Positions 8,614 to 48,942 are shown, counted from the first letter of the stretch. The stretch is DNA of 64,000 nucleotides from Patescibacteria group bacterium (GCA_041664445.1 JBAYKT010000005.1:7438-71437); one strand, 5' to 3'. Program-made: numbers and translations. The notes: generated from the letters alone by a model not told the origin.

Positions 8614-9102
8614 ATGAAAAAGAAATTATTGATTTTCCGATTCGAAAATGTCTTAATAGACATTACCCCTGGACAGTATTATATCCAAAAAAAATTATGG
8701 GAACTCCTCAGGGAGTTAAAAAAAGATGGCTATCAATTAATATTAACGACTAGCCTGGGGTTTGAAAGCACGCTGAGGGCCGTAACCTCAATGAGTGAAG
8801 TGAGCGAGACTATTCACACCCATTTTGATAAATTAATCTCCTCGCATCAACCTGACCGTCAACTTGACGAACCTCTCCGCTTCGCTGAAAAAAATAAAAT
8901 TGAATTAGACGAAATTGTCTATTTCGGAAATTATTACAGCGATTACCAAGCTGCGCAAAAAGCAGGAATTGATTTTATCGGCGTAATTGACCATTTGGCA
9001 GAAACGCAATTGTTAAACAAAATCCTGCCTGATGAAAAGCGTGTCCACCCGATTCTATTTGAAGAATTTTTGAGTCAATATTTAGAACTAACAACAGTTT
9101 AA
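8614..9102 (+). CDS. HAD-like paralogue lacking the motif-I aspartates (pseudo-phosphatase candidate)
   Basis: 162 aa. Aligns to the upstream HAD (LIFRFENVLIDI vs FIFDLDGVLIDS; YFGNYYSDY..AGIDFIGV vs YFGDTISQD..PIDFVGV). Confidence 0.6.
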   Translation: MKKKLLIFRFENVLIDITPGQYYIQKKLWELLRELKKDGYQLILTTSLGFESTLRAVTSMSEVSETIHTHFDKLISSHQPDRQLDEPLRFAEKNKIELDEIVYFGNYYSDYQAAQKAGIDFIGVIDHLAETQLLNKILPDEKRVHPILFEEFLSQYLELTTV

Positions 9103-9147
9103 AAATATAGCCGGTATTTATCGGTTATGCACACACTTATTTTCCGA

Positions 9148-9177
9148 GCCGCTTCCCCTAAAGAAGCGGCTTTTTTC
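9148..9177 (+). terminator. Rho-independent terminator
   Basis: GCCGCTTC-N7-GAAGCGGC followed by T6. Confidence 0.8.
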
Positions 9178-9178
9178 T

Positions 9179-9207
9179 TTGACAATTGAAACTTCTGGTA
9201 TTAATAT
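9179..9207 (+). promoter_or_regulatory. sigma70-type promoter of the third HAD-like gene
   Basis: TTGACA-17 nt-TAATAT. Confidence 0.7.
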
Positions 9208-9250: not shown

Positions 9251-9754
9251 ATGAAAAAATTATTAATTTTTAGTGAACAGGCTCTTTTCAATGACTTCGT
9301 TCAGCCAACGGATTTTGTAAAGACCCTAAAGATGCTGGAAAAGTTATCCGAAAATGGATTTTTTTTAGCGCTAGTCAGCACCTCCCCGGAAGAAACTCTT
9401 TTAAGAATGACGCGCAGAAAAAGAGTGGATATCAGCCACCTTTTTCATAAAGTTCAATACGTCAGACGAGTTTACGACCTAGATGATTATTTAGTGAGCA
9501 TAATCTCTTGGGGAAAACGGAAAAAATTAAGCTTGGGGGAAATGGTTTATTTCGGCCGTTCCCTCTATCCTGATTATTCCGCTACCAGAACGGCTGATGG
9601 CATTGAATTTATTGGCGTCCTTATCAGCCAAAATTTAAATGACCCTTTTGCTCCTTGTGTAAGCATTACCGCTGAACAAAAAGTAGAAGCGCGAAATCTT
9701 TGGCAATTTTTGCCAAAATATTTAGAACTCGCCGAGGCGATTAAAGAAACTTAA
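9251..9754 (+). CDS. HAD-like paralogue lacking the motif-I aspartates (pseudo-phosphatase candidate)
   Basis: 167 aa. LIFSEQALFNDF in place of DxD. YFGRSLYPDY..DGIEFIGV. C-terminal KYLEL shared with the 8614 paralogue. Confidence 0.6.
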   Translation: MKKLLIFSEQALFNDFVQPTDFVKTLKMLEKLSENGFFLALVSTSPEETLLRMTRRKRVDISHLFHKVQYVRRVYDLDDYLVSIISWGKRKKLSLGEMVYFGRSLYPDYSATRTADGIEFIGVLISQNLNDPFAPCVSITAEQKVEARNLWQFLPKYLELAEAIKET

Positions 9755-9835: not shown

Positions 9836-11011
9836 TTAATATTTCCCCTTTGTCTTAGCTCTTAATCCCGCCTTCCGGCCGCGATTAGCAAAACGATGGG
9901 CCTCTTCGCGTAACTTTAATAAAGTAGCTTTAATATTTTCGGCGAGTTCGCGCTGTTCTTTTTTAGTCTTTACGCTAAAAACCAACTTATCGCCGCCGAA
10001 TTTAGAAATCCCAACCATCTGGGCACTAATATTTAATTTAGCCAGTTCACGCGTTAAAAAACTAATTTGCGGCGAACCACCATCAATCATAATTAAATCA
10101 GGGAGCGGCCATTCTAAATGCTTAAAGCGCCTAGTTAAAACTTCTAACAAAGCCCGTTCGTCATCGCCTCCGGGCGCGTCTTTGATTTTAAATAAACGGT
10201 ACTCAGAAGTATTAGCTTCCCCATTTTCAAAAACCACCATTGAACCATAGCTTTCCTTACCGGAGTGATGCGAGATATCATAGCCCTCAAGACGGCTTAT
10301 TTTTCTTTCATTTAAATCTTCATCGCGCGTTAAGAGCGAAACATCTTGCAAATGCTGGAGTGCTTTGGCTTGTTCGGGATTAGCTTTTTTAAGTTTAAGC
10401 ATTAAACGCTTTTTCTCGCCTTTTAGGAGCAGAATAATATTATCAATATTCTTTTTGTATTCACGGGCACTAATTTTGTCGGCGCAAGCTCCGGGACAAA
10501 GTCCAATTTGATAGTCAAAACAAGCCCGGCCGCTATTCGGCTTGCAAGTCCCATACGGAAAGATGCGACGAATTAAACGCAAGGCATTTTGTAAGAGATA
10601 ATATGATTGATAGGGGCCGAATACTTGAGCGGTTCCTGCGGGAAACTTTTTTAACTCATGCCCGCGGATAATAAGCGGACGCGTAAAATCTTTTTTTGGA
10701 ATGACAACATAAATAAAGGAACGGTCATCGCGGTCAACAATATTATATTTAGGCCAATATTTTTTAATATTAGTTGCCTCTAAAATTATGGCTTCCAGTA
10801 GAGTTTCGGTTTCTTCATAACGGATATTATGCGCCGCGGCCACCATTTCCGCGATGCGCGAGCTGATTCCTTTTTGAAAATATTGGCTTAGGCGGGCCTT
10901 TAAGCTCGTAGCCCGGCCGACATATAAAACTGTTCCCTTTTTATTCAACCAAAAATAGACCCCGGGCTTCTTGGGGGCGGATTTAGCAACGGTGGATAAA
11001 TCTCTTGACAT
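9836..11011 (-). CDS. uvrC: excinuclease ABC subunit C, shortened form (391 aa)
   Basis: GIY-YIG N-terminus (KPGVYFW..VLYVGRA.SL..RL.QY). Cys motif CFDYQIGLCPGAC. C-terminal endonuclease core RLEGYDISH..GSMVVF, DLIMIDGG..Q, LREEAHRFA. No HhH2 tail. Confidence 0.85.
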   Translation of the reverse strand: MSRDLSTVAKSAPKKPGVYFWLNKKGTVLYVGRATSLKARLSQYFQKGISSRIAEMVAAAHNIRYEETETLLEAIILEATNIKKYWPKYNIVDRDDRSFIYVVIPKKDFTRPLIIRGHELKKFPAGTAQVFGPYQSYYLLQNALRLIRRIFPYGTCKPNSGRACFDYQIGLCPGACADKISAREYKKNIDNIILLLKGEKKRLMLKLKKANPEQAKALQHLQDVSLLTRDEDLNERKISRLEGYDISHHSGKESYGSMVVFENGEANTSEYRLFKIKDAPGGDDERALLEVLTRRFKHLEWPLPDLIMIDGGSPQISFLTRELAKLNISAQMVGISKFGGDKLVFSVKTKKEQRELAENIKATLLKLREEAHRFANRGRKAGLRAKTKGKY

Positions 11012-11032
11012 AAAAATAAAAAGGATTAATAT
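11005..11032 (+). promoter_or_regulatory. consensus sigma70-type promoter firing antisense to the uvrA-uvrC transcript
   Basis: TTGACA-16 nt-TAATAT. Overlaps the first codons of uvrC on the other strand. Confidence 0.6.
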
Positions 11033-11038
11033 GCTTAA

Positions 11039-11309
11039 TATAGTTCGCCCACAAATAGTGGGTTTGCAAATTCAACAACCGGATAAAACCGGAAAATCGC
11101 TGCGACGACTTCGTGGAGGCATACTCGAGCAAGTTAATTCTTGCATTAATCGTAACGCCCTCCAAGCGACTCAAGTCAAGTAGCATTGCACCCTAGCAAC
11201 AAACGTCTGCTCACGAAAGTTGGGCATTAATGGTTATAAGGTTTCTTAATTAATGAAATTCTTGTTCAAATAACCAATCCTAAGACCGCTGTTGCTAGGG
11301 TCTTTTTTT
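11039..11309 (+). ncRNA. candidate ~270-nt structured RNA of unknown class, antisense to the uvrA-uvrC spacer
   Basis: Bounded by the promoter above and by AAGACC-N11-GGTCTT plus a T-run. Several stable hairpins, including an 11-bp long-range stem CCCTAGCAACA/TGTTGCTAGGG. No plausible ORF. Confidence 0.4.
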
Positions 11310-11324
11310 ATTTAAAAGACCAAA

Positions 11325-13841
11325 TTACTTTTTTAAATAAGGCTTTAAATACTTGCCAGTCTCCGATTCCGGTTCCCTAACAATATCTTCCGGCGCACCC
11401 GCGGCTACTAAGCGTCCGCCTTTTTCACCGCCATCGGGCCCTAAATCAATAATATAATCCATAGACTTAAGCATATGCATATTATGCTCAATAACTAACA
11501 CCGAATTCCCCTTCTCCACTAACTTATTCAAAACGGTAAGTAACATATCAATATCATAATAATGCAAACCGGTTGTCGGTTCATCCAATAAATACAGAGT
11601 ACGCTTGCCTAAGGTATGGGTTAGCTCTTTAGCAATTTTAATTCTCTGCGCCTCACCGCCGGATAAGGTGGTCGCGCTTTGGCCGATTTTAATATAACCC
11701 AAACCGACCGACTGTAAAACTTTTAATTTTTCGGTGATATAGTAATTGCCGTCAAAATGCTCAACTGCCTCATCAATCGTCATATCCAATACCTGGGCGA
11801 TGTTCTTATCTTTATATTTAACTTGCAGAGTTTCGCGATTAAATCTTTTACCACGGCAAACCTCACATTCCACTAAAACTGGAGGCAAAAAATGCATTTC
11901 AATTAAATTTGCACCTGCTCCTTCGCAAGCTTCACAGCGTCCGCCCGGACGATTAAAGGAAAAACGGCCAATACCATAACCGCGTTCTCTGGCTTCCGGT
12001 AAACCGGCAAAGAAATCGCGAATCGGCGTAAAGATACCGGTGTAAGTAGCGGGATTAGAGCGCGGAGTGCGGCCAATCGGCGATTGGTCAATCACAACTA
12101 CCTTGCTGATATAATCAGTGCCCTTAATTTCTTTAACATCTTCCATTTTGGCGCGACCACCGGGACGCGCTTTAATATGAGAAACGTTTTTATATAACAC
12201 ATCGTAAAGAAAGGATGACTTTCCACTCCCAGAAACACCGCTGATACCGACTAAGCGTCCGAGTGGGATTTCTACGGTGATATTTTTTAAATTATTAGCC
12301 GTCGCGCCGATAATCTTCAAGGAGCCGTGATTTTGCTCGCGTCTTTTATTAGGCAGGCTAATTTCTCGATGACCGTTTAAATATTGCAAAGTCAAGGACT
12401 TTTTGGTGGCCGTCTTATCTTTACCGTCCAAAAGTGCCTTAACCTCACCCGCGGCCATAACTTCACCGCCGTGAACACCAGCCAAAGGTCCTAAATCAAC
12501 CAAATAATCCGCTGCTAGAATGGTTTTTTCATCATGCTCCACAATAATTACCGTATTATCCTTATCGCGTAATTTTTTCAAAGTATCAATCAGTTTTTCA
12601 GTGTCGCGTTCGTGCAGGCCGATTGTCGGTTCATCAAGAACATACAAAGTTCTCGATAAATGGGAACTGATTTGTGAAGATAAACGGATGCGCTGAGCCT
12701 CACCACCGGATAAGGTATGGGCTTCACGCTCTAAACTTAAATAATCCAGACCGACTTTAAGCAAAAACTCCAAGCGGCTAATAATCTGGACAACCACGTT
12801 CTCCGCAATCGCCAGCTCCCGCTTGGTCATTTTTTCATAATAACTATTGAAAAACTTTAAGGTTTTATCAAGCGGCAACTTAGCGACTTCAGCAATATTC
12901 TTGTTAGCAACTCTAACGGACAAACCTTCCGGTTTTAAGCGTGCGCCCTTACAAGTCTCGCATTTTTCTTCGCCAAAAAAATTCTTTTTGCCTAGTCCCG
13001 CGCATTCCGGACAAGCCCCAGCCGGCGAATTAAAAGAAAACAAGCGCGGCTCAACTTCCGGAAAAGAAAAATTATCATTCGGGCAAGTCCAATTGGAAGA
13101 TAGCAGAAATTCCTGTTTTTCATATTTAGCGACCACTAAGCCCTTGCTGTATTCCATGGCTTTTTCTACCGCTTCAAATAAGCGGGATTGGTCATCAAGC
13201 ATTACTTTATCAATCACAACATCAATATCATGATTTTGTTTGGAGGCTAACTTTATTTTTTCTCGGAGCGAGTGAATTTTTCCGTCTACCCGTGCTTCCG
13301 CATAGCCTAAACCTAAATAATTGTATAAAAGCTGATAATATTCACCTTTACGATTGCGAATAACCGGCGACATAATAGTCACATATTTTTCCTGAGAATC
13401 TTGGCCGCGGTTAATAATAATGTCCACCATTTCTTCGGTCGTCAGTTTTTCAATTTTATGGCCGCAAAGCGGACAATGCACATCGCCTACGCGCGCGTAT
13501 AAAACCCGTAAATAATCATAGATGTCGGTTAAAGTCCCGACCGTGGACCGCGGATTATGAGATAAGGCTTTTTGATCAATAGCAATTGCCGGTGCTAAAC
13601 CGATAATTTCATCCACATCGGCCGGTTTTTTCTGGCCCAAGAATTGACGCATATAGGGGGATAAGGATTCAACATATTGTCTTTGCCCTTCGGCAAAAAT
13701 CGTATCAAAAGCCAGCGACGATTTGCCACTTCCCGAAACGCCGGAAATTACCGTTAATTTATTATGCGGTATTTCCAAATTAATATTTTTCAAATTATGC
13801 ATCCGCGCGCCGCGGATTATCATTTTTCCTTTATCTGACAT
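11325..13841 (-). CDS. uvrA: excinuclease ABC subunit A, form lacking the insertion domain (838 aa)
   Basis: Two ABC modules (GVSGSGKSS twice; LSGGEAQR twice) and zinc modules. Only 9 residues between CAGLG and CETCKGARL. Confidence 0.95.
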   Translation of the reverse strand: MSDKGKMIIRGARMHNLKNINLEIPHNKLTVISGVSGSGKSSLAFDTIFAEGQRQYVESLSPYMRQFLGQKKPADVDEIIGLAPAIAIDQKALSHNPRSTVGTLTDIYDYLRVLYARVGDVHCPLCGHKIEKLTTEEMVDIIINRGQDSQEKYVTIMSPVIRNRKGEYYQLLYNYLGLGYAEARVDGKIHSLREKIKLASKQNHDIDVVIDKVMLDDQSRLFEAVEKAMEYSKGLVVAKYEKQEFLLSSNWTCPNDNFSFPEVEPRLFSFNSPAGACPECAGLGKKNFFGEEKCETCKGARLKPEGLSVRVANKNIAEVAKLPLDKTLKFFNSYYEKMTKRELAIAENVVVQIISRLEFLLKVGLDYLSLEREAHTLSGGEAQRIRLSSQISSHLSRTLYVLDEPTIGLHERDTEKLIDTLKKLRDKDNTVIIVEHDEKTILAADYLVDLGPLAGVHGGEVMAAGEVKALLDGKDKTATKKSLTLQYLNGHREISLPNKRREQNHGSLKIIGATANNLKNITVEIPLGRLVGISGVSGSGKSSFLYDVLYKNVSHIKARPGGRAKMEDVKEIKGTDYISKVVVIDQSPIGRTPRSNPATYTGIFTPIRDFFAGLPEARERGYGIGRFSFNRPGGRCEACEGAGANLIEMHFLPPVLVECEVCRGKRFNRETLQVKYKDKNIAQVLDMTIDEAVEHFDGNYYITEKLKVLQSVGLGYIKIGQSATTLSGGEAQRIKIAKELTHTLGKRTLYLLDEPTTGLHYYDIDMLLTVLNKLVEKGNSVLVIEHNMHMLKSMDYIIDLGPDGGEKGGRLVAAGAPEDIVREPESETGKYLKPYLKK

Positions 13842-13858
13842 ATATAAACAATTTCAAT

Positions 13859-14287
13859 TTATTTAAAAATTTTTCCCTCTTTATACCTTTCAATCATCAG
13901 CTCTGTGCCTTCAAAAAGCGGCTTTGGTAAATTATCCAAATCAAACCAGCGCCACTCAGCAAATTTTTTAGGCTCTTTAGTCTTCGGAATTCCCTGAGAT
14001 TTATTAGCCAGAAATCCTAGGCCAACATAATGCTTGCCTTTATCGATTGAACGTAATTCATCTTGAACTGAAATTAATTCTAACTCAGAAACCACGAGAC
14101 CAGTTTCTTCTAGGGCCTCTCTAGCCGCTCCATCAATTAGTTTTTCTCCGAACTCTAAATGCCCACCTGGAAAACACCAAGTTCCTTGACCATGAGGAGA
14201 TTTTCGCAAACCCAGCAAGACTTGATTTTCGTCATTCTTAATCATTACCCCTAGGCCGACCTTTGGTCGATTTTCAATATTTTCCAT
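13859..14287 (-). CDS. Nudix hydrolase
   Basis: 142 aa. Nudix box GGHLEFGEKLIDGAAREALEETGL. Confidence 0.85.
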   Translation of the reverse strand: MENIENRPKVGLGVMIKNDENQVLLGLRKSPHGQGTWCFPGGHLEFGEKLIDGAAREALEETGLVVSELELISVQDELRSIDKGKHYVGLGFLANKSQGIPKTKEPKKFAEWRWFDLDNLPKPLFEGTELMIERYKEGKIFK

Positions 14288-14293
14288 ATTATT

Positions 14294-15451
14294 TTAGGCT
14301 TTATTTTCTTGATTATTATCCTTATTGTAATTCCATCCAGGATGACGATAGTTTTCACTATTATTTTCGGCAATTTCATTAAATATAATCTTAAAATACT
14401 CAGGCTTAGTGGTGCTAAAAAATTGCCTTGAATCATCTGATAATTTACCTTTTTTATATAAATCTGAAAGTTGGCGATAATGTTCATCAGTGAATTCTTC
14501 ACCATACTTCTTTATTCCTAATTGTTCCATTTCTAACTCTAAAACTTGTTTGCGCGCATAACGCTCCGGCTGACTTCTAAAATAATTACTTAATACTCTT
14601 TTTGTATCCTCTCTTGTATCGCCGTGTGTTTTTTTAAGATACTCTTTAAACTCTGGTTTCTTGAAATCAATTTTTTGACCAGATTTACTCATTAATTTAG
14701 CCGCTTTACGGGAATATTCGTCGGCGTCAACTGTTTTATGCCCCAATATTTCATGCTCGACGGTAAATTCATGTTTTTTATGATTCTTGGGCAATATCAC
14801 CGAGAACCTTTTTTCATCAGTTTCATAGTTAGCATTATTGTCATCAAGAGAATAAGTTCCATGCATAATATTCTGCAGTCTCGTTTGTTGGTGTTCTTTA
14901 GCCGCCTGTTCATCGATATCGTATTCCAACATTAATTTTTTAAGATATTCCGGACTTTTTACATGTTCTATTAACGCCTCTATTTTACTATCATAAAATT
15001 CAAAGTCCTCTTTATTTTTAGAAAAATTCTCCTTATCAAAATAAACATCGCCTACTTCTTTAACTTTCAAATCAGGATTAACAAGATACTTCTCATAAAC
15101 GTTTATGAGTTGCTCCTGTTCCTCAATATTATTCCCGTCAGAAAGAAGACTCTTGGCATTATCCAAAGCCAACTTAACTTTTTCGATATTTTCCGCTAAG
15201 AGAATATCAGGATTTTCTTGTTTTTCTCTTAATTCGCCGCTAACATCTTTTTTGTTAGATAAATCATACATTTTAGGCGAATTACGGTCTAACATCCATT
15301 CATCATTTTTTGGCATTTTTTCTGACTGCGCCTGAACCTTTTCCGCTCCTAAAACTATGCTGGCACCAATGCCAACGGCGAGCGTGCCAATTTTAGCCGC
15401 TTTTTTAACATCCTCCTGCCCTTTTTTGAAAAATGATTCAAACTTAAACAT
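14294..15451 (-). CDS. exported or membrane-anchored HExxGH-motif protein (putative zinc metallopeptidase-like), paralogue 2
   Basis: 385 aa. N-terminus MFKFESFFKKGQEDVKKAAKIGTLAVGIGASIVLGAEKVQAQ. HEILGH, then PERYARK 63 residues later. Conserved tail IFNEIAENN. Confidence 0.5.
   Translation of the reverse strand: MFKFESFFKKGQEDVKKAAKIGTLAVGIGASIVLGAEKVQAQSEKMPKNDEWMLDRNSPKMYDLSNKKDVSGELREKQENPDILLAENIEKVKLALDNAKSLLSDGNNIEEQEQLINVYEKYLVNPDLKVKEVGDVYFDKENFSKNKEDFEFYDSKIEALIEHVKSPEYLKKLMLEYDIDEQAAKEHQQTRLQNIMHGTYSLDDNNANYETDEKRFSVILPKNHKKHEFTVEHEILGHKTVDADEYSRKAAKLMSKSGQKIDFKKPEFKEYLKKTHGDTREDTKRVLSNYFRSQPERYARKQVLELEMEQLGIKKYGEEFTDEHYRQLSDLYKKGKLSDDSRQFFSTTKPEYFKIIFNEIAENNSENYRHPGWNYNKDNNQENKA
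15326..15451. repeat. ~125-nt block about 90% identical to 17095..17220 (5' ends of the two paralogues)
   Basis: Hand alignment gives about 13 mismatches in about 125 nt, far above the similarity of the rest of the genes. Confidence 0.8.
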
Positions 15452-15453
15452 AT

Positions 15454-16035
15454 TTAATATTTTAAAAACGGATTTGGACCAGCAAAAGTGATTAGCGGTG
15501 TGTGATGGTTAATAATATCATTCGGAACGCCATATTTTTTATTATACAAGGTATCGGCGGCACAAAATAACGCCTCAGAATAATCAAAACCCAATTTAGC
15601 GCTCACGGCTTTTACTATTTCCTCCGATTGGCCTTCAACTTCCACATAGGGTTCTAGATAGGGCCATTCATCAATGGTAATTTCGGTATTATCCAGAGTC
15701 CAAAGTTCGCGGCGACTTTCTTGAAAGGCTTTCTGCTTGGCGCCGACTGATTCTAAAAACATGATGCCTTCCGCAAAATTATCAATTTTTAATTGAATTT
15801 CTTTTTGATTTTCTATTTTATCGCCGTCGACAACTTTTAGACTCATCGTTATTTTATCGCCTTCGTCACGGACTCTAAGCCAAGCACCGGGAATTTCATG
15901 ACCGACCGGTAATTCAAAAACAACGCGTTTCATTAAAAACTCCGCTTTAATAAGCTGAGCACCGGCGGCTTTTAAACGCGCGCGCATCTCGCCCTTATCA
16001 ATATTAATAAAAGTTGCTTCGTATTCAATGTTCAT
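15454..16035 (-). CDS. CYTH-domain protein (CyaB / triphosphate tunnel metalloenzyme family)
   Basis: 193 aa. N-terminal IEYEATF (ExExK-like signature with T for K). Beta-rich pattern with WLRVRDEGDKITMSLK typical of CYTH. Confidence 0.65.
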   Translation of the reverse strand: MNIEYEATFINIDKGEMRARLKAAGAQLIKAEFLMKRVVFELPVGHEIPGAWLRVRDEGDKITMSLKVVDGDKIENQKEIQLKIDNFAEGIMFLESVGAKQKAFQESRRELWTLDNTEITIDEWPYLEPYVEVEGQSEEIVKAVSAKLGFDYSEALFCAADTLYNKKYGVPNDIINHHTPLITFAGPNPFLKY

Positions 16036-16038
16036 ATT

Positions 16039-17220
16039 CTAAGCTTTATTTTCTTTATTTAAATTATTCTCCGGCGCTAGATTATTTTCGGCAATTTCGT
16101 TAAAAATTGTTTCTAAATATTCCGGTTTTACTATTTCTAAAAAATGTTTTGCTGAATCCGAAAGCTTATTCTGCTTTTTAAATTCATTAAGAATTGCTAT
16201 ATGCTCTAAACTAAACTTTTCGCCATATTTTTTAATTCCCAAATTTTCCATCTCCATTTCCAAATTCTTTTTGCGGGCATACATCTCACTAACATTAGAA
16301 AAATAATTAGTTAACTCAGCAAACACATCTTTAGTTCTTTCGGGCGTACTTATATTAAATTTTTCGGCCTTAGCATAATTTAGCAGAAATTCTGGGTTAT
16401 CACGGTAAGCCTCTTTAAATGTTTGTTGGGCTTTATTAGATAGACCAAATTCAGCAAAAGTGGCTTTATGTCCCAAGACTTCATGAGTAATTATTTCGTC
16501 CTTATTTTTAGCGCCCTCCTCTAAAGAAACTTTGGCGGAATTCTTTTTAATGCCACCATCTACCTCATAGCGCCAATTAAAATTACTATCGCCTTGGACC
16601 AAGGAATAATCTCCGGACTTAACAGCGTCAACCCTGGCTTCCTGTATTTTTTTAGCCTCTTCTATAGAGCACTCATATTCCCGAGACAATTTTTCTAAAT
16701 ATTCGGAACCCGCAACATGATTAATTAATTTCTCAAAAATCTTATCATATTCTGCCCTAGCATCTTCATAAGACTTAATGTCCGCTCCTCTTTCAGCTAA
16801 AGTTTTTTGCAAGTTTTCCTCAGCCTCCTTTAAATCTACCTGAAAACTTTTTTTAATTTCTGCTCCCCTAACTGAATCTGGAGTTAAAAAAAATGTCTCA
16901 TCAGTCAAAATTTCTTTATAATTTTTAATGCTTGTTTCTAAAATCCTAACTTTTTGCTCATTAAACTCAGCGGGGTTATACCCTTTTTCTTTATTAAAAT
17001 ATTCTTGAAAGTTATAATTTTGCTCGCTAGTAGCCGCGGACTCTGTTTTATTAGACTCCGCTTCAATATCAATTTTATTATTACGAACCGTGTCTTGCGC
17101 CTCAACCTTTTCCGCCCCTAAAACGACGCCAGCGCCAATGCCAACGGCAAGCGTGCCAATTTTAGCCGCTTTTTTAACATCTTCCTGCCCCTTTTTAAAA
17201 AATGAATCAAATTTAAACAT
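16039..17220 (-). CDS. exported or membrane-anchored HExxGH-motif protein (putative zinc metallopeptidase-like), paralogue 1
   Basis: 393 aa from MFKFDSFF. The longer ORF would overlap uvrB. HEVLGH, SEMYARK, tail IFNEIAENN. Confidence 0.5.
   Translation of the reverse strand: MFKFDSFFKKGQEDVKKAAKIGTLAVGIGAGVVLGAEKVEAQDTVRNNKIDIEAESNKTESAATSEQNYNFQEYFNKEKGYNPAEFNEQKVRILETSIKNYKEILTDETFFLTPDSVRGAEIKKSFQVDLKEAEENLQKTLAERGADIKSYEDARAEYDKIFEKLINHVAGSEYLEKLSREYECSIEEAKKIQEARVDAVKSGDYSLVQGDSNFNWRYEVDGGIKKNSAKVSLEEGAKNKDEIITHEVLGHKATFAEFGLSNKAQQTFKEAYRDNPEFLLNYAKAEKFNISTPERTKDVFAELTNYFSNVSEMYARKKNLEMEMENLGIKKYGEKFSLEHIAILNEFKKQNKLSDSAKHFLEIVKPEYLETIFNEIAENNLAPENNLNKENKA
17095..17220. repeat. partner of repeat 15326..15451
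   Basis: See 15326..15451. Confidence 0.8.
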
Positions 17221-17224
17221 ATTC

Positions 17225-19060
17225 TTATTCCTCCGCCACATCCAAGAAGCCTTCAATCTTCTTGTAAATGTTAATCGGGGTAATATTATGCTCTTTATTA
17301 TACTTTAATTGTTTTTTGCGGCGTCTTTCAGCTTCATTAATTGCTCGTTTCATTGATTCAGTTTTTTTGTCGGCGTAAAGAATAATCTTACCCTTAACAT
17401 TTCTGGCCGCTCGGCCCATGGTTTGCATTAGCGAAGTCTGACTGCGCAAAAATCCTTCTCTATCGGCGTCTAAAATGGCAACAAGAGTTACTTCCGGCAA
17501 ATCCAAACCTTCGCGCAATAAATTAACGCCGATTAAAACGTCAAAGGCTCCTTCGCGAAAATTCTTTAAGATTTCGGTGCGTTCAAAGGTTTTGATGTCG
17601 CTATGGAGATAATTGGAGCGAAACCCTTGACCATTTAAATAAGTATTTAAATCTTCGGCCTGTTTTTTAGTCAGAGTATTAATAATCGCCCGCTCGCCCA
17701 GTCTGGCAATTTCCCGAATCTCCTCCATCACGTCATTTATCTGACTATAATTGGTTTCTTTATTAAACACTGGTCTAATTTCAATCTCCGGGTCAATCAG
17801 TCCGGTCGGTCGGATAACTTGCTCCACGATTTGTTCGGACTTTTTCATTTCAAAATCGCCCGGAGTAGCGGTGGTAAAAATAGTTTGGCCGATACGTGCT
17901 TCAAATTCGTTAAACTTTAAAGGGCGATTATCTAAAGCCGAGGGCAAGCGCCAACCATATTGAGTTAAAGTCTTTTTGCGCGCCTGATCACCATTATACA
18001 TGCCTCTAATTTGTGGGATGGCGATATGGGATTCATCAACAACCAATAAAAAATCTGCTTTCCCCTCTTTCCAGGGAAAATAGGCCAGCAAGGAATCAGG
18101 CGCTTCACCGGTCAATTTACCGGTTAGGTGTCGCGAATAATTTTCAATGCCATGGCAGTAACCGAGACTGTGGAGCATTTCAATATCATATTTAGTTCGA
18201 CGCTCCAAACGTTCAGCTTCTAATAATAGGCCTTCTTTTTTAAAATAGGCTAAGCGGTCCTTTAATTCCGCTTGAATATTTTTAATTGCCCCTTCAATTT
18301 GCGGGCCGGTAGAAACAAAGTGTTTGGGCGGGAAAATAACAATTTCTTCCAGATTTTCCAAAATATTTTTAGTCGTGTTATCAATAATCGTTAATTCGGA
18401 AATAATTTGGTCTTTTAATTCTAAACGATAAACGATGTTTTCCGACTTCGGGCGGATTTCAAAGATATCTCCCCGAACCCGAAACTGGCCGCGTTCTACA
18501 TTTCCGCTTACCCGTTCAAACTGAATCTTAATCAACTGTTTAATTAAATCGGTACGTACCATCGGCTTCCCTGTTTCTAAAACTAAACTAGCTTCTAAAT
18601 AAGAAGACGGGACACCAAGATTATAAATACAAGAAACCGAAGCCACAATAATCACATCGCGGCGAGAAACGAGCGCCGAAGTCGCCCCGTGGCGCAGACG
18701 GTCTATCTCTTGGTTAATCATCGCCTCCTTATCTATATAAGTATCGGTTATTGGCAAATAGGCTTCCGGCTGATAGTAATCATAATAGGAAACAAAGTAA
18801 TGAACGGCATTATCCGGAAAAAAATTCTTATATTCACGATACAGCTGCGCCGCTAAAGCTTTATTGGGAGCAATTACTAGAACTGGCTTATCTTGCCCGG
18901 CAATAATATTGGCCACCGTAAAGGTCTTGCCGCTACCGGTCACGCCTAAAAGCGTCTGATAATTAAATCCAGACGCTAAACCAGTCTCCAGCTTCTTAAT
19001 CGCTTCCGGCTGGTCGCCGGCGGGCAAAAAATCAGACTTTAATTTGAACAATTTTTCCAT
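17225..19060 (-). CDS. uvrB: excinuclease ABC subunit B lacking the C-terminal UVR domain (611 aa)
   Basis: Helicase motifs (GVTGSGKTFT, DESH, beta-hairpin region). Ends ..KYNKEHNITPINIYKKIEGFLDVAEE, with no FEEAA-type UVR helix hairpin. Confidence 0.95.
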   Translation of the reverse strand: MEKLFKLKSDFLPAGDQPEAIKKLETGLASGFNYQTLLGVTGSGKTFTVANIIAGQDKPVLVIAPNKALAAQLYREYKNFFPDNAVHYFVSYYDYYQPEAYLPITDTYIDKEAMINQEIDRLRHGATSALVSRRDVIIVASVSCIYNLGVPSSYLEASLVLETGKPMVRTDLIKQLIKIQFERVSGNVERGQFRVRGDIFEIRPKSENIVYRLELKDQIISELTIIDNTTKNILENLEEIVIFPPKHFVSTGPQIEGAIKNIQAELKDRLAYFKKEGLLLEAERLERRTKYDIEMLHSLGYCHGIENYSRHLTGKLTGEAPDSLLAYFPWKEGKADFLLVVDESHIAIPQIRGMYNGDQARKKTLTQYGWRLPSALDNRPLKFNEFEARIGQTIFTTATPGDFEMKKSEQIVEQVIRPTGLIDPEIEIRPVFNKETNYSQINDVMEEIREIARLGERAIINTLTKKQAEDLNTYLNGQGFRSNYLHSDIKTFERTEILKNFREGAFDVLIGVNLLREGLDLPEVTLVAILDADREGFLRSQTSLMQTMGRAARNVKGKIILYADKKTESMKRAINEAERRRKKQLKYNKEHNITPINIYKKIEGFLDVAEE

Positions 19061-34485: not shown

Positions 34486-34562
34486 TGGTGGTCGCTAGTG
34501 GACTCGAACCACTGGCCTCCGCGATGTGAACGCGGCGCTCTAACCAACTGAGCCAAGCGACC
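34486..34562 (-). tRNA. tRNA-Val (anticodon CAC), CCA encoded
   Basis: Cloverleaf folded by hand: acceptor GGTCGCT/AGCGACC, anticodon stem CCGCG/CGCGG, loop TTCACAT, T-arm AGTGG-TTCGAGT-CCACT. Confidence 0.9.
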
Positions 34563-34570
34563 GTTCTGAT

Positions 34571-34657
34571 TGGTGCCCAGAGGGGGATTTGAACCCCCAC
34601 AGGATTGCTCCTACAGCGTTCTGAACACTGCGTGTCTACCAATTTCACCATCTGGGC
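34571..34657 (-). tRNA. tRNA-Leu (anticodon CAG), long variable arm, CCA encoded
   Basis: Acceptor GCCCAGA/TCTGGGC, loop TTCAGAA, variable arm TAGGAGCAATCCTGT, T-arm GGGGG-TTCAAAT-CCCCC. Confidence 0.9.
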
Positions 34658-48797: not shown

Positions 48798-48886
48798 CTA
48801 TATCATATTTATCTAAACTTGTCAATAATATAACAAAAAATAGACTAATACTAGTCTATTTAATGTAATTGCTCGGGGATAGGGAT
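48798..48886. repeat. repeat copy D (overlaps the genuine 3' end of tRNA-Gln)
   Basis: See copy C. Constant offset of 645 bp. Confidence 0.85.
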
Positions 48887-48942
48887 TCGAACCCCAATAG
48901 CCAGGACCAGAACCTGGAGTCCTACCGTTAGACGATCCCCGA
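48872..48942 (-). tRNA. tRNA-Gln (anticodon CTG), CCA not encoded
   Basis: Acceptor TCGGGGA/TCCCCGA (U1-A72), anticodon stem CCAGG/CCTGG, loop TTCTGGT, T-arm TGGGG-TTCGAAT-CCCTA. Confidence 0.85.

Follow-up and report, generated by a model that had tools for sequence, protein, structure and literature searches.

A reduced UvrABC nucleotide excision repair gene set without UVR hairpins in a clade of Patescibacteria

The window analysed in this study is a stretch of 64,000 nt from a Patescibacteria group bacterium (GCA_041664445.1 JBAYKT010000005.1:7438-71437). It carries uvrC, uvrA, and uvrB, all on the (-) strand (Table 1). The three open reading frames (ORFs) are intact, and re-reading them gave exactly the lengths that a first-pass annotation of this DNA had reported (838 aa for UvrA, 611 aa for UvrB, and 391 aa for UvrC). 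Five modules are missing from the products, namely the insertion domain of UvrA, domain 4 of UvrB, and the UVR hairpin, the PF22920 domain, and the (HhH)2 domain of UvrC. The ATPase, zinc, helicase, and nuclease motifs are all kept in the three proteins. Judging from these features, the region probably encodes a full but reduced UvrABC nucleotide excision repair system that works. This reduced UvrABC is characteristic of one Patescibacteria clade, whose genomes are mostly labelled Candidatus Falkowbacteria.

Table 1 Features of the window, with positions counted from its first nucleotide; the uvr genes are followed by neighbouring features.
Feature	Position	Strand	Content or basis
uvrC, minimal form, 391 aa	9836-11011	(-)	GIY-YIG, beta-sheet motif, four-Cys region, three short helices, linker, RNase H-like (5') nuclease
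UvrC residues ~199-226 EKKRLMLKLKKANPEQAKALQHLQDVSL, excision junction	10334-10417	(-)	Comparison with UVR-keeping relatives
UvrC C-terminal end REEAHRFANRGRKAGLRAKTKGKY and stop codon	9836-9910	(-)	Tail lengths after E[AS]HRF; Pfam
uvrA, 838 aa, class I	11325-13841	(-)	Both ABC ATPase modules, UvrB-binding domain, zinc modules; no insertion domain
UvrA residues 277-300 CPECAGLGKKNFFGEEKCETCKGA, Zn module 2 with 9-residue linker	12942-13013	(-)	PDB alignment and gap lengths across loci
uvrB, 611 aa	17225-19060	(-)	Domains 1a, 1b, 2, 3, beta-hairpin region, helicase motifs, PF12344; no domain 4
UvrB C-terminal end EHNITPINIYKKIEGFLDVAEE and stop codon	17225-17293	(-)	Clade-conserved terminal motif IE[EDG]FLD
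NUDIX hydrolase gene	13859-14287	(-)	Directly upstream of uvrA
Paralogous ORF, 385 aa	14294-15451	(-)	No Pfam match
CYTH-domain gene	15454-16035		Flanked by the two paralogous ORFs
Paralogous ORF, ~393 aa	16039-17220	(-)	No Pfam match
Three tandem HAD-like hydrolase ORFs, 244, 162, and 167 aa	7877-9754	(+)	Third ORF at 9251-9754
Very large ORF, 1079 aa	2869-6108	(-)	
Very large ORF, 1113 aa	19220-22561	(+)	N-terminal hydrophobic segment, Cys-rich repeat-like regions
Very large ORF, 1171 aa	26941-30456	(-)	
Ribosomal protein L10 leader and three tRNA genes (Rfam)	1069-1191, 34489-34657, 48872-48942	(-)	Unrelated to UvrABC

The Pfam matches of UvrA were UvrA_inter and the ABC modules. UvrA_inter (PF17760) was matched at residues 134-240 (E = 1.6e-23), which means that the UvrB-binding domain is present. 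Walker A (GVSGSGKS), signature (LSGGEAQR), and Walker B (LDEPT.GLH) motifs were found in two copies each, together with the zinc CxxC pairs CPLC123, CPEC277/CETC294, and CEAC636/CEVC659. The protein passed the NCBIfam equivalogs NF001503 (1194 bits vs a cut-off of 1147) and TIGR00630 (1136 vs 730). No Pfam match to the insertion domain (UvrA_DNA-bind, PF17755) was obtained in the window UvrA. Hidden Markov models (HMMs) were also built from the relatives gathered in this study for UVR, the UvrB tail, HhH2, the insertion domain, and the PF22920 mid domain, and the insertion-domain HMM was negative for the window UvrA and positive for the controls. The NCBIfam UvrA profile was matched at positions 1-~290 and 402-942 of 943, skipping ~290-402, and the alignment with PDB 9gxk breaks off at residue ~313 and resumes at ~420. 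Zinc module 2 reads CPECAGLG-KKNFFGEEK-CETCKGAR, with the four cysteines kept round a linker of nine residues. Across the loci, this gap was 9 residues long in 76 and 8 in 3; it was 107-123 residues long in the 8 loci with an insertion domain.

UvrB gave Pfam matches to ResIII/DEAD, UvrB_inter (PF17757), Helicase_C, and PF12344, and the motifs GVTGSGKT, DESH, YYDYYQPEAY, and GRAAR were found in it. The SF2 helicase core and domain 2, the part that interacts with UvrA and Mfd, are therefore kept. The protein ends ~10 residues past domain 3, without a linker or the UVR hairpin that forms domain 4. The NCBIfam match covers profile positions 2-597 of 653 (NF003673, 910.5 vs a cut-off of 743), the match to a solved structure reaches chain residue 598 of 661, and PF02151 (UVR) was not matched in the window UvrB. 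When sister-group UvrBs were aligned with it, their linker and hairpin of 55-70 residues proved to be wholly absent from the window protein. Among the 63 UVR-less UvrBs, 40 end in IE[ED]FLD or IEGFLD and the remainder in close variants. Some UvrBs of the clade are longer (626-661 aa), but these were rejected as keepers of the hairpin, the extra residues being a Lys/Arg-rich low-complexity tail or the result of an upstream start codon. A subclade of UVR-less UvrBs has gained such tails, 15-40 residues long, after the ..IE.[LF]L. terminus (L039, L040, L048, L049, L052, L058, and L068; also L051, L053, L069, L076, L077, and L099). These could be non-specific DNA-binding tails.

UvrC matched solely GIY-YIG (PF01541, residues 16-90) and UvrC_RNaseH_dom (PF08459, residues 236-375, E = 3.5e-35) in Pfam, and its structure matches were limited to crystal structures of isolated GIY-YIG and RNase H domains. 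The GIY-YIG catalytic residues Y19, Y30, R40, E78, and N90 were all found and do not vary in alignments, and the RNase H-like DDH triad (D245, D310, and H372), which aligns with that of T. maritima, is invariant as well. The same applies to the four-Cys region (C156/C164/C172/C176), which is annotated as PF27096 UvrC_M in relatives. Neither the UVR hairpin (PF02151) nor (HhH)2 was detected in the window UvrC by Pfam, which gave no HHH match, or by our HMMs. The inactive RNase H-like domain PF22920 (RNase H1) is absent from the window UvrC and the short relatives and present in canonical UvrCs (P0350, P0387, and P0327). The protein stops 19 residues past the motif of the catalytic His372, where canonical UvrCs run on for ~66-73 residues of (HhH)2; counted from E[AS]HRF, the tail has 11-26 residues in short UvrCs and 66-73 in the HhH2 forms. 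A remnant of helix 2 (AKALQHLQDV) remains at the junction, to be compared with RKRIFALEHIQDV in P0254 and other relatives that keep UVR, and it points to an internal excision of UVR helix 1, the turn, and the FE.AA..RD core. From the Cys motif to E.YDIS, the spacer measures 60-69 residues in all 83 UVR-less UvrCs, 80-110 in short UvrCs that keep UVR, and 210-250 in canonical UvrCs. The window UvrC scored narrowly above the cut-off of the equivalog TIGR00194 (292.4 vs 285.45) and far below those of the NF0112xx and NF001824 equivalogs. An AlphaFold2 model of it was confident within domains, with a mean predicted local distance difference test score (pLDDT) of 86.7. In NCBI, the short UvrC is called merely 'GIY-YIG nuclease family protein', which is an under-annotation.

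These results bear out the first-pass annotation in several respects. It had described a UvrA with nine residues (KKNFFGEEK) instead of the insertion domain, on which Pfam, NCBIfam, PDB 9gxk, and our HMM agree, a UvrB lacking the C-terminal UVR domain, as seen from the profile end at 597/653, the lack of PF02151, and the sister alignment, and a UvrC that ends after REEAHRFA without (HhH)2. Its account of the ~140 residues missing between LLLKG and EGYDISH in UvrC was right in that the UVR core is gone, but most of this length corresponds to PF22920, a domain that it did not name. The five domains are gone and not diverged. Diverged copies were ruled out by the clean gaps in the Pfam, NCBIfam, and PDB alignments and by spacer lengths that fall into separate classes, and our HMMs gave strong matches in control loci only.

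Short forms of this kind could also be artefacts, that is, truncated gene calls, frameshifts, mis-assembled metagenome genomes, or decaying pseudogenes. The source is indeed a metagenome-type genome, and the generic NCBI name of the short UvrC would be in keeping with such a view. However, identical architectures were found in hundreds of independent assemblies (NCBI, JGI, ENA, and Logan), and the deletions are internal and in frame, as seen in 76 loci from the Zn2 linker of 9 residues and in 83 from the UvrC spacer of 60-69 residues. The best 120 UvrC clusters (90% identity) were all 384-420 aa long with the same domains, and the best 120 UvrB clusters (90% identity) were all 610-618 aa long, none with PF02151. 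The ratio of non-synonymous to synonymous substitution rates (dN/dS) was 0.02-0.03 (0.019-0.034 per gene, measured against L001 and L003, for which dS is unsaturated), and uvrA, uvrB, and uvrC are under equally strong purifying selection. The catalytic, zinc, and helicase motifs are invariant in alignments down to ~40% identity, and the nuclease sites are so over more than 75 sequences. A pseudogene or an assembly artefact was thus ruled out by the recurrent lengths, dN/dS, and the conserved gap sizes, and we give the artefact explanation practically no weight.

The distribution of the truncated set was examined by a scan of the clade with one genome per GTDB species, which yielded 80 loci (62-97% UvrC identity); 80 metagenome loci and loci round named sister-group proteins were added for diversity. 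The truncated set occurs in at least 80 species-level genomes. Near-identical relatives are named Patescibacteria group or Candidatus Falkowbacteria, the latter placed by NCBI taxonomy within the Parcubacteria group of Patescibacteria. According to our own ORF calls in the 80 loci, UvrC of the clade is ~375-445 aa long (median 392). UvrA is always 820-862 aa long in the clade loci, and UvrB never has the hairpin. The order uvrB..uvrA-uvrC is kept in 60 of the 80 GTDB species-level loci, the others ending at contig edges. Many records of metagenome-assembled genomes belonging to the clade bear the title 'uncultured Gammaproteobacteria bacterium', 'Bacillota bacterium', 'Planctomycetota bacterium' or 'Candidatus Saccharimonadales' (L002, L004-L006, L012, L052, L079, and others); these titles conflict with the 62-95% identity to Falkowbacteria genes.

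The short UvrC is far more widespread than the clade when representatives of 50%-identity clusters are considered. Among the best 150 such UvrC representatives, 114 have UVR without HhH2, 24 have neither (several of these are fragments), and 12 are canonical. Examples of these UvrCs analysed with Pfam displayed all combinations of UVR, PF22920, and HhH2 loss. A UvrA without the insertion domain accompanies a UvrC with UVR in 11 loci, a UvrC without HhH2 accompanies a UvrA with the insertion domain in 5, and named sister genomes with the same synteny have UVR in both UvrB and UvrC together with a short UvrA. In a neighbour-joining tree of UvrA+UvrB (1425 columns, variable regions removed), the keepers of the insertion domain lie outside an insertion-less clade made up of two sister groups, one of which keeps UVR in both proteins; the other is monophyletic, has UVR in neither protein, and contains the window. 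The losses are nested and stepwise at domain boundaries, not simultaneous. HhH2 and PF22920 were lost first, a position given to them because their loss has the widest distribution, followed by the UvrA insertion domain and then by both UVR hairpins on one branch. This stepwise removal of domains took place during genome reduction of the Patescibacteria radiation. The first-pass annotation had regarded the truncations as one coordinated 'domain-minimised set'. Since they occur independently of each other in relatives (HhH2-less with the insertion domain in 5 loci, insertion-less with UVR in both proteins in 8-11 loci), the idea of a joint minimisation of the three proteins was abandoned.

The domain content of UvrC is mix-and-match across uncultured lineages. 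Intermediate UvrCs that have UVR and HhH2 and no PF22920 are ~475-530 aa long (20 loci), and those that have UVR and PF22920 and no HhH2 are 546-553 aa long. The intermediates include P0299, P0327, the metagenome loci L089, L103, L113, and L116, and others.

The UVR status of UvrB and that of UvrC were concordant in 74 of 75 loci; UVR was absent from both proteins in 63 loci and present in both in 11, and one locus (L105) appeared discordant, with UVR in UvrB and none in UvrC. L105 was rejected as a true exception, the HMM result being a false negative, and its UvrC has a diverged RFEAASRTKKIL and a full-length spacer. The UVR motif is also plainly present in L104, L100, L138, and several proteins that carry no precomputed PF02151 annotation. 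The double loss maps to one branch of the UvrA+UvrB tree, so that it represents one event and neither statistical proof nor replicated evidence of coupling. The concordance fits what would be expected if the chief role of each hairpin were to bind the other. The earlier proposal that the joint loss of both partner hairpins indicates a different UvrB-UvrC hand-off therefore stands in part: the concordance agrees with it, but a single event provides no replication.

A second, more distant lineage of UVR-less short UvrCs was observed (P0309 and P0345; L166-L169), in which the proteins are 388-414 aa long, the junction sequence is different, and the synteny differs as well (UvrC, holin_4_2, SecG, SBP_bac_5, and RNase J). 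The UVR loss in this lineage may be independent of that in the window clade. Within 10 kb of uvrC in the P0309/P0345 lineage, a candidate for a replicate of the joint loss, there was no uvrB.

The missing domains might instead be supplied in trans by separate small proteins encoded at other sites, be it an adaptor formed of a UVR hairpin alone, a DNA-binding protein with (HhH)2, or a protein resembling the insertion domain, and it is known that the separated C-terminal half of UvrC complements truncated UvrC in vitro (PMC10085695). Six-frame translations of the 64-kb window and ~1.3 Mb of related loci were searched with our HMMs (E<1e-3). In the control loci, the matches numbered 79 for UvrC UVR, 62 for the UvrB tail, 29 for HhH2, 8 for the insertion domain, and 7 for PF22920. 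No separate gene for UVR, the UvrB tail, HhH2, the insertion domain, or PF22920 was found in the window or in the 80 clade loci. In favour of supply in trans, the search took in the window and ±10 kb in 80 relatives, out of genomes of ~1 Mb. On the other hand, with both UVR halves gone, an adaptor acting in trans would have no docking partner, and the cluster contains no additional conserved gene. The 313-bp uvrA-uvrC spacer contains no credible ORF, and the content of the uvrB-uvrA spacer differs among genomes whose Uvr proteins are 97-99% identical: L001 and L002 have the CYTH gene alone, L003 has none, and the window adds the NUDIX gene and two paralogous ORFs. A conserved accessory gene inside the cluster was thus rejected, since the NUDIX gene and both paralogous ORFs are genome-specific and the CYTH gene is absent from L003. 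We consider supply in trans very unlikely. Dependence on another factor, which the first-pass annotation had suggested, finds no support in a neighbourhood where the uvrB-uvrA genes vary even among the closest relatives.

The most likely mode of action of the reduced set would be ordinary excision repair in the order UvrA, UvrB, and UvrC, with UVR-independent recruitment of UvrC. The A-B interface, made up of the UvrB-binding domain of UvrA and domain 2 of UvrB, and both nuclease sites are retained in an orthologous and syntenic set. In this scheme, the insertion-less UvrA dimer would sense damage via the DNA contacts left to it, those of signature domain II and the Zn3 hairpin, and would load UvrB through the kept UvrB-binding domain and UvrB domain 2. 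UvrB, without the autoinhibitory, UvrC-recruiting domain 4, would then build the pre-incision complex; since domain 4 is lost, the autoinhibition of the UvrB ATPase that it exerts should be gone too (PMC7835731). The minimal UvrC may be recruited in a Cho-like manner, by contacts other than the UVR-UVR coiled coil. Its GIY-YIG domain would make the cut 3' of the lesion and its kept DDH RNase H-like domain the 5' cut, the latter probably with lower efficiency for want of (HhH)2. In D. radiodurans, 3' incision depends on the interaction of UvrB with UvrC and 5' incision does not, and UvrC deprived of (HhH)2 (DrUvrC-∆(HhH)2) shows near-normal UvrB and DNA binding, full 3' incision, and reduced 5' incision (PMC10085695). 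The E. coli-type Cho consists of GIY-YIG and the Cys-rich motif alone, has no UvrB-binding motif, and works with UvrAB (PMC10085695), and an alternative UvrAB/Cho pathway has been described (PMC3820734).

A stronger form of this proposal would be that a new, specific UvrB-UvrC docking contact has replaced the coiled coil and, together with the insertion-less UvrA, constitutes a truly different minimal hand-off. We regard this as possible but doubtful. A candidate contact is the hydrophobic-acidic IE[ED]FLD..E terminus of UvrB on the three-helix remnant or the nuclease domains of UvrC. The alternative to a new contact is mere reliance on weak secondary contacts common to all UvrBC pairs.

Several points weigh against ordinary excision repair by this set. 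The arrangement of the UvrC domains in the AlphaFold2 model is less confident than the domains themselves (predicted template modelling score, pTM, 0.60), and their relative orientation is uncertain. The function of the three proteins is deduced from conservation, namely dN/dS and intact motifs, and the trans-domain search extended ±10 kb round the genes in relatives. The UVR-UVR contact is required for the pre-incision complex and 3' incision in model systems (PMC7835731), and the insertion domain has been termed essential for DNA coordination (PMC11985968). Furthermore, a deletion mutant of the UvrA-like Ecm16 that lacks this domain does not bind DNA (PMC10192343), and the central RNase H1 (inactive RNase H-like) domain was described as a highly conserved platform of UvrC by Seck et al. 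2023 (PMC10085695). Since all these elements are lacking here, the system may work differently or poorly. The system of the clade may act more slowly or with poorer discrimination, or other contacts may compensate for the losses, one lead being the UvrB terminus IE[ED]FLD.

Taken further, the system may have been repurposed or may be only part-working, with UvrC acting as a nuclease that makes a single cut in the manner of Cho or works in some other way without UvrB, or UvrAB serving in drug-DNA adduct or transcription-coupled roles, and dual incision lost. This would agree with the joint absence of several elements required in model organisms, with the end of DNA binding on deletion of the insertion domain in Ecm16 (PMC10192343), and with a UvrC that barely reaches one equivalog cut-off and fails others. 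However, more than 75 sequences, down to ~40% identity, show no change in the GIY-YIG residues or the DDH triad, the UvrB-binding domain of UvrA and domain 2 of UvrB are kept, the three genes are linked in a conserved order, and purifying selection is equally strong on all of them. Invariant sites, a kept interface, linkage, and selection are what a still-coupled A-B-C pathway would show, and we therefore judge repurposing unlikely and favour ordinary excision repair with UVR-independent recruitment of UvrC.

The other genes round the cluster showed the following features. The two paralogous ORFs that flank the CYTH-domain gene share the N-terminus MFKF[ED]SFFKKGQEDVKKAAKIGTLAVGIGA and the C-terminus ..IFNEIAENN.., and MFKF[ED]SFFKKGQEDVKKAAKIGTLAVGIGA looks like a signal or transmembrane segment. 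These ORFs are absent from L001-L003 and represent a genome-specific insertion between uvrB and uvrA; the NUDIX hydrolase gene is likewise not at this position in L001-L003. The third of the HAD-like ORFs has no counterpart in L001 and L003, where uvrC adjoins the equivalent of window positions 9000-9185. The three very large ORFs gave no Pfam match or a weak Cadherin-like one, and their products are probably surface proteins, as suggested by their sequence features.

The UvrA insertion domain, the UVR contact between UvrB and UvrC, and the RNase H1 and (HhH)2 domains of UvrC, all held to be important or essential from work on E. coli, Bacillus, Thermotoga, and Deinococcus, are thus absent in a constrained set of at least 80 species. 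If the set is active, it would show a minimal core of nucleotide excision repair as it occurs naturally in bacteria, and UvrC recruitment and activation would be possible without the coiled-coil contact. The set offers a natural experiment on what the repair machine really requires, and since the sister lineages hold intermediate states (UVR without HhH2; with or without the insertion domain), they offer matched natural comparators for each module. Given the name under which the short UvrC is recorded, the repair capacity of Patescibacteria is probably under-called in metabolic reconstructions.

No description of a reduced UvrABC in Patescibacteria or the candidate phyla radiation was found in a full-text literature search. 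A published catalogue covering the architectures of UvrC and Cho names C4-UvrBb-EndoV-HhH, C4-ChoCTD, C4-UvrBb, and forms from Mycoplasma that lack C4, and a GIY-YIG-C4-EndoV form without both UvrBb and HhH is not among them (PMC1564403). The reduced UvrABC is not a new kind of system, and the variant is apparently undescribed. The window proteins are orthologous to those of canonical UvrABC (E. coli, Geobacillus/Bacillus caldotenax, Thermotoga maritima, and Deinococcus radiodurans). Both have the ATPase, helicase, and zinc modules, PF17760 and PF17757, both UvrC nuclease sites, and the four-Cys region, whereas canonical UvrABC has the five modules that the window set lacks. Laboratory constructs (DrUvrC-∆(HhH)2 and the insertion-domain deletions of E. 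coli UvrA and Ecm16) have had the same modules removed as the window proteins; however, each construct carries one deletion and is defective, whereas the deletions in the window are natural, combined, and under purifying selection.

E. coli Cho resembles the window UvrC in having GIY-YIG and the Cys-rich motif without UVR, and it acts on the UvrB-DNA pre-incision complex; UvrAB/Cho is the best functional precedent for UVR-independent recruitment. Moolenaar and co-workers reportedly found in 2002 that Cho has no need of the C-terminal domain of UvrB, which is missing from UvrB*. Unlike the window UvrC, which keeps the 5' nuclease, Cho has its own C-terminal domain, lacks the RNase H-like 5' nuclease, and makes the 3' cut only (PMC1564403). 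The window protein is a UvrC orthologue and not a Cho, scoring 49.4 bits vs a cut-off of 367 with NF007833 and containing the RNase H nuclease domain. It is also the sole UvrC-type nuclease seen beside uvrAB and not a back-up enzyme. Class II UvrAs (D. radiodurans UvrA2, Ecm16, and DrrC) are paralogues that have lost one accessory domain, as has the window UvrA; in their case the UvrB-binding domain is gone and the insertion domain retained (PMC10192343), and the window UvrA shows the reverse. The short UvrCs of sister Patescibacteria (P0250, P0413, and P0497; some labelled Candidatus Uhrbacteria), which consist of GIY-YIG, UVR, and RNase H in ~400-460 aa, are also without PF22920 and (HhH)2. 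These sisters share the uvrB-uvrA-uvrC synteny, and the nearest of them have an insertion-less UvrA as well, but they differ from the window in that the UVR hairpin is kept in both UvrC and UvrB.

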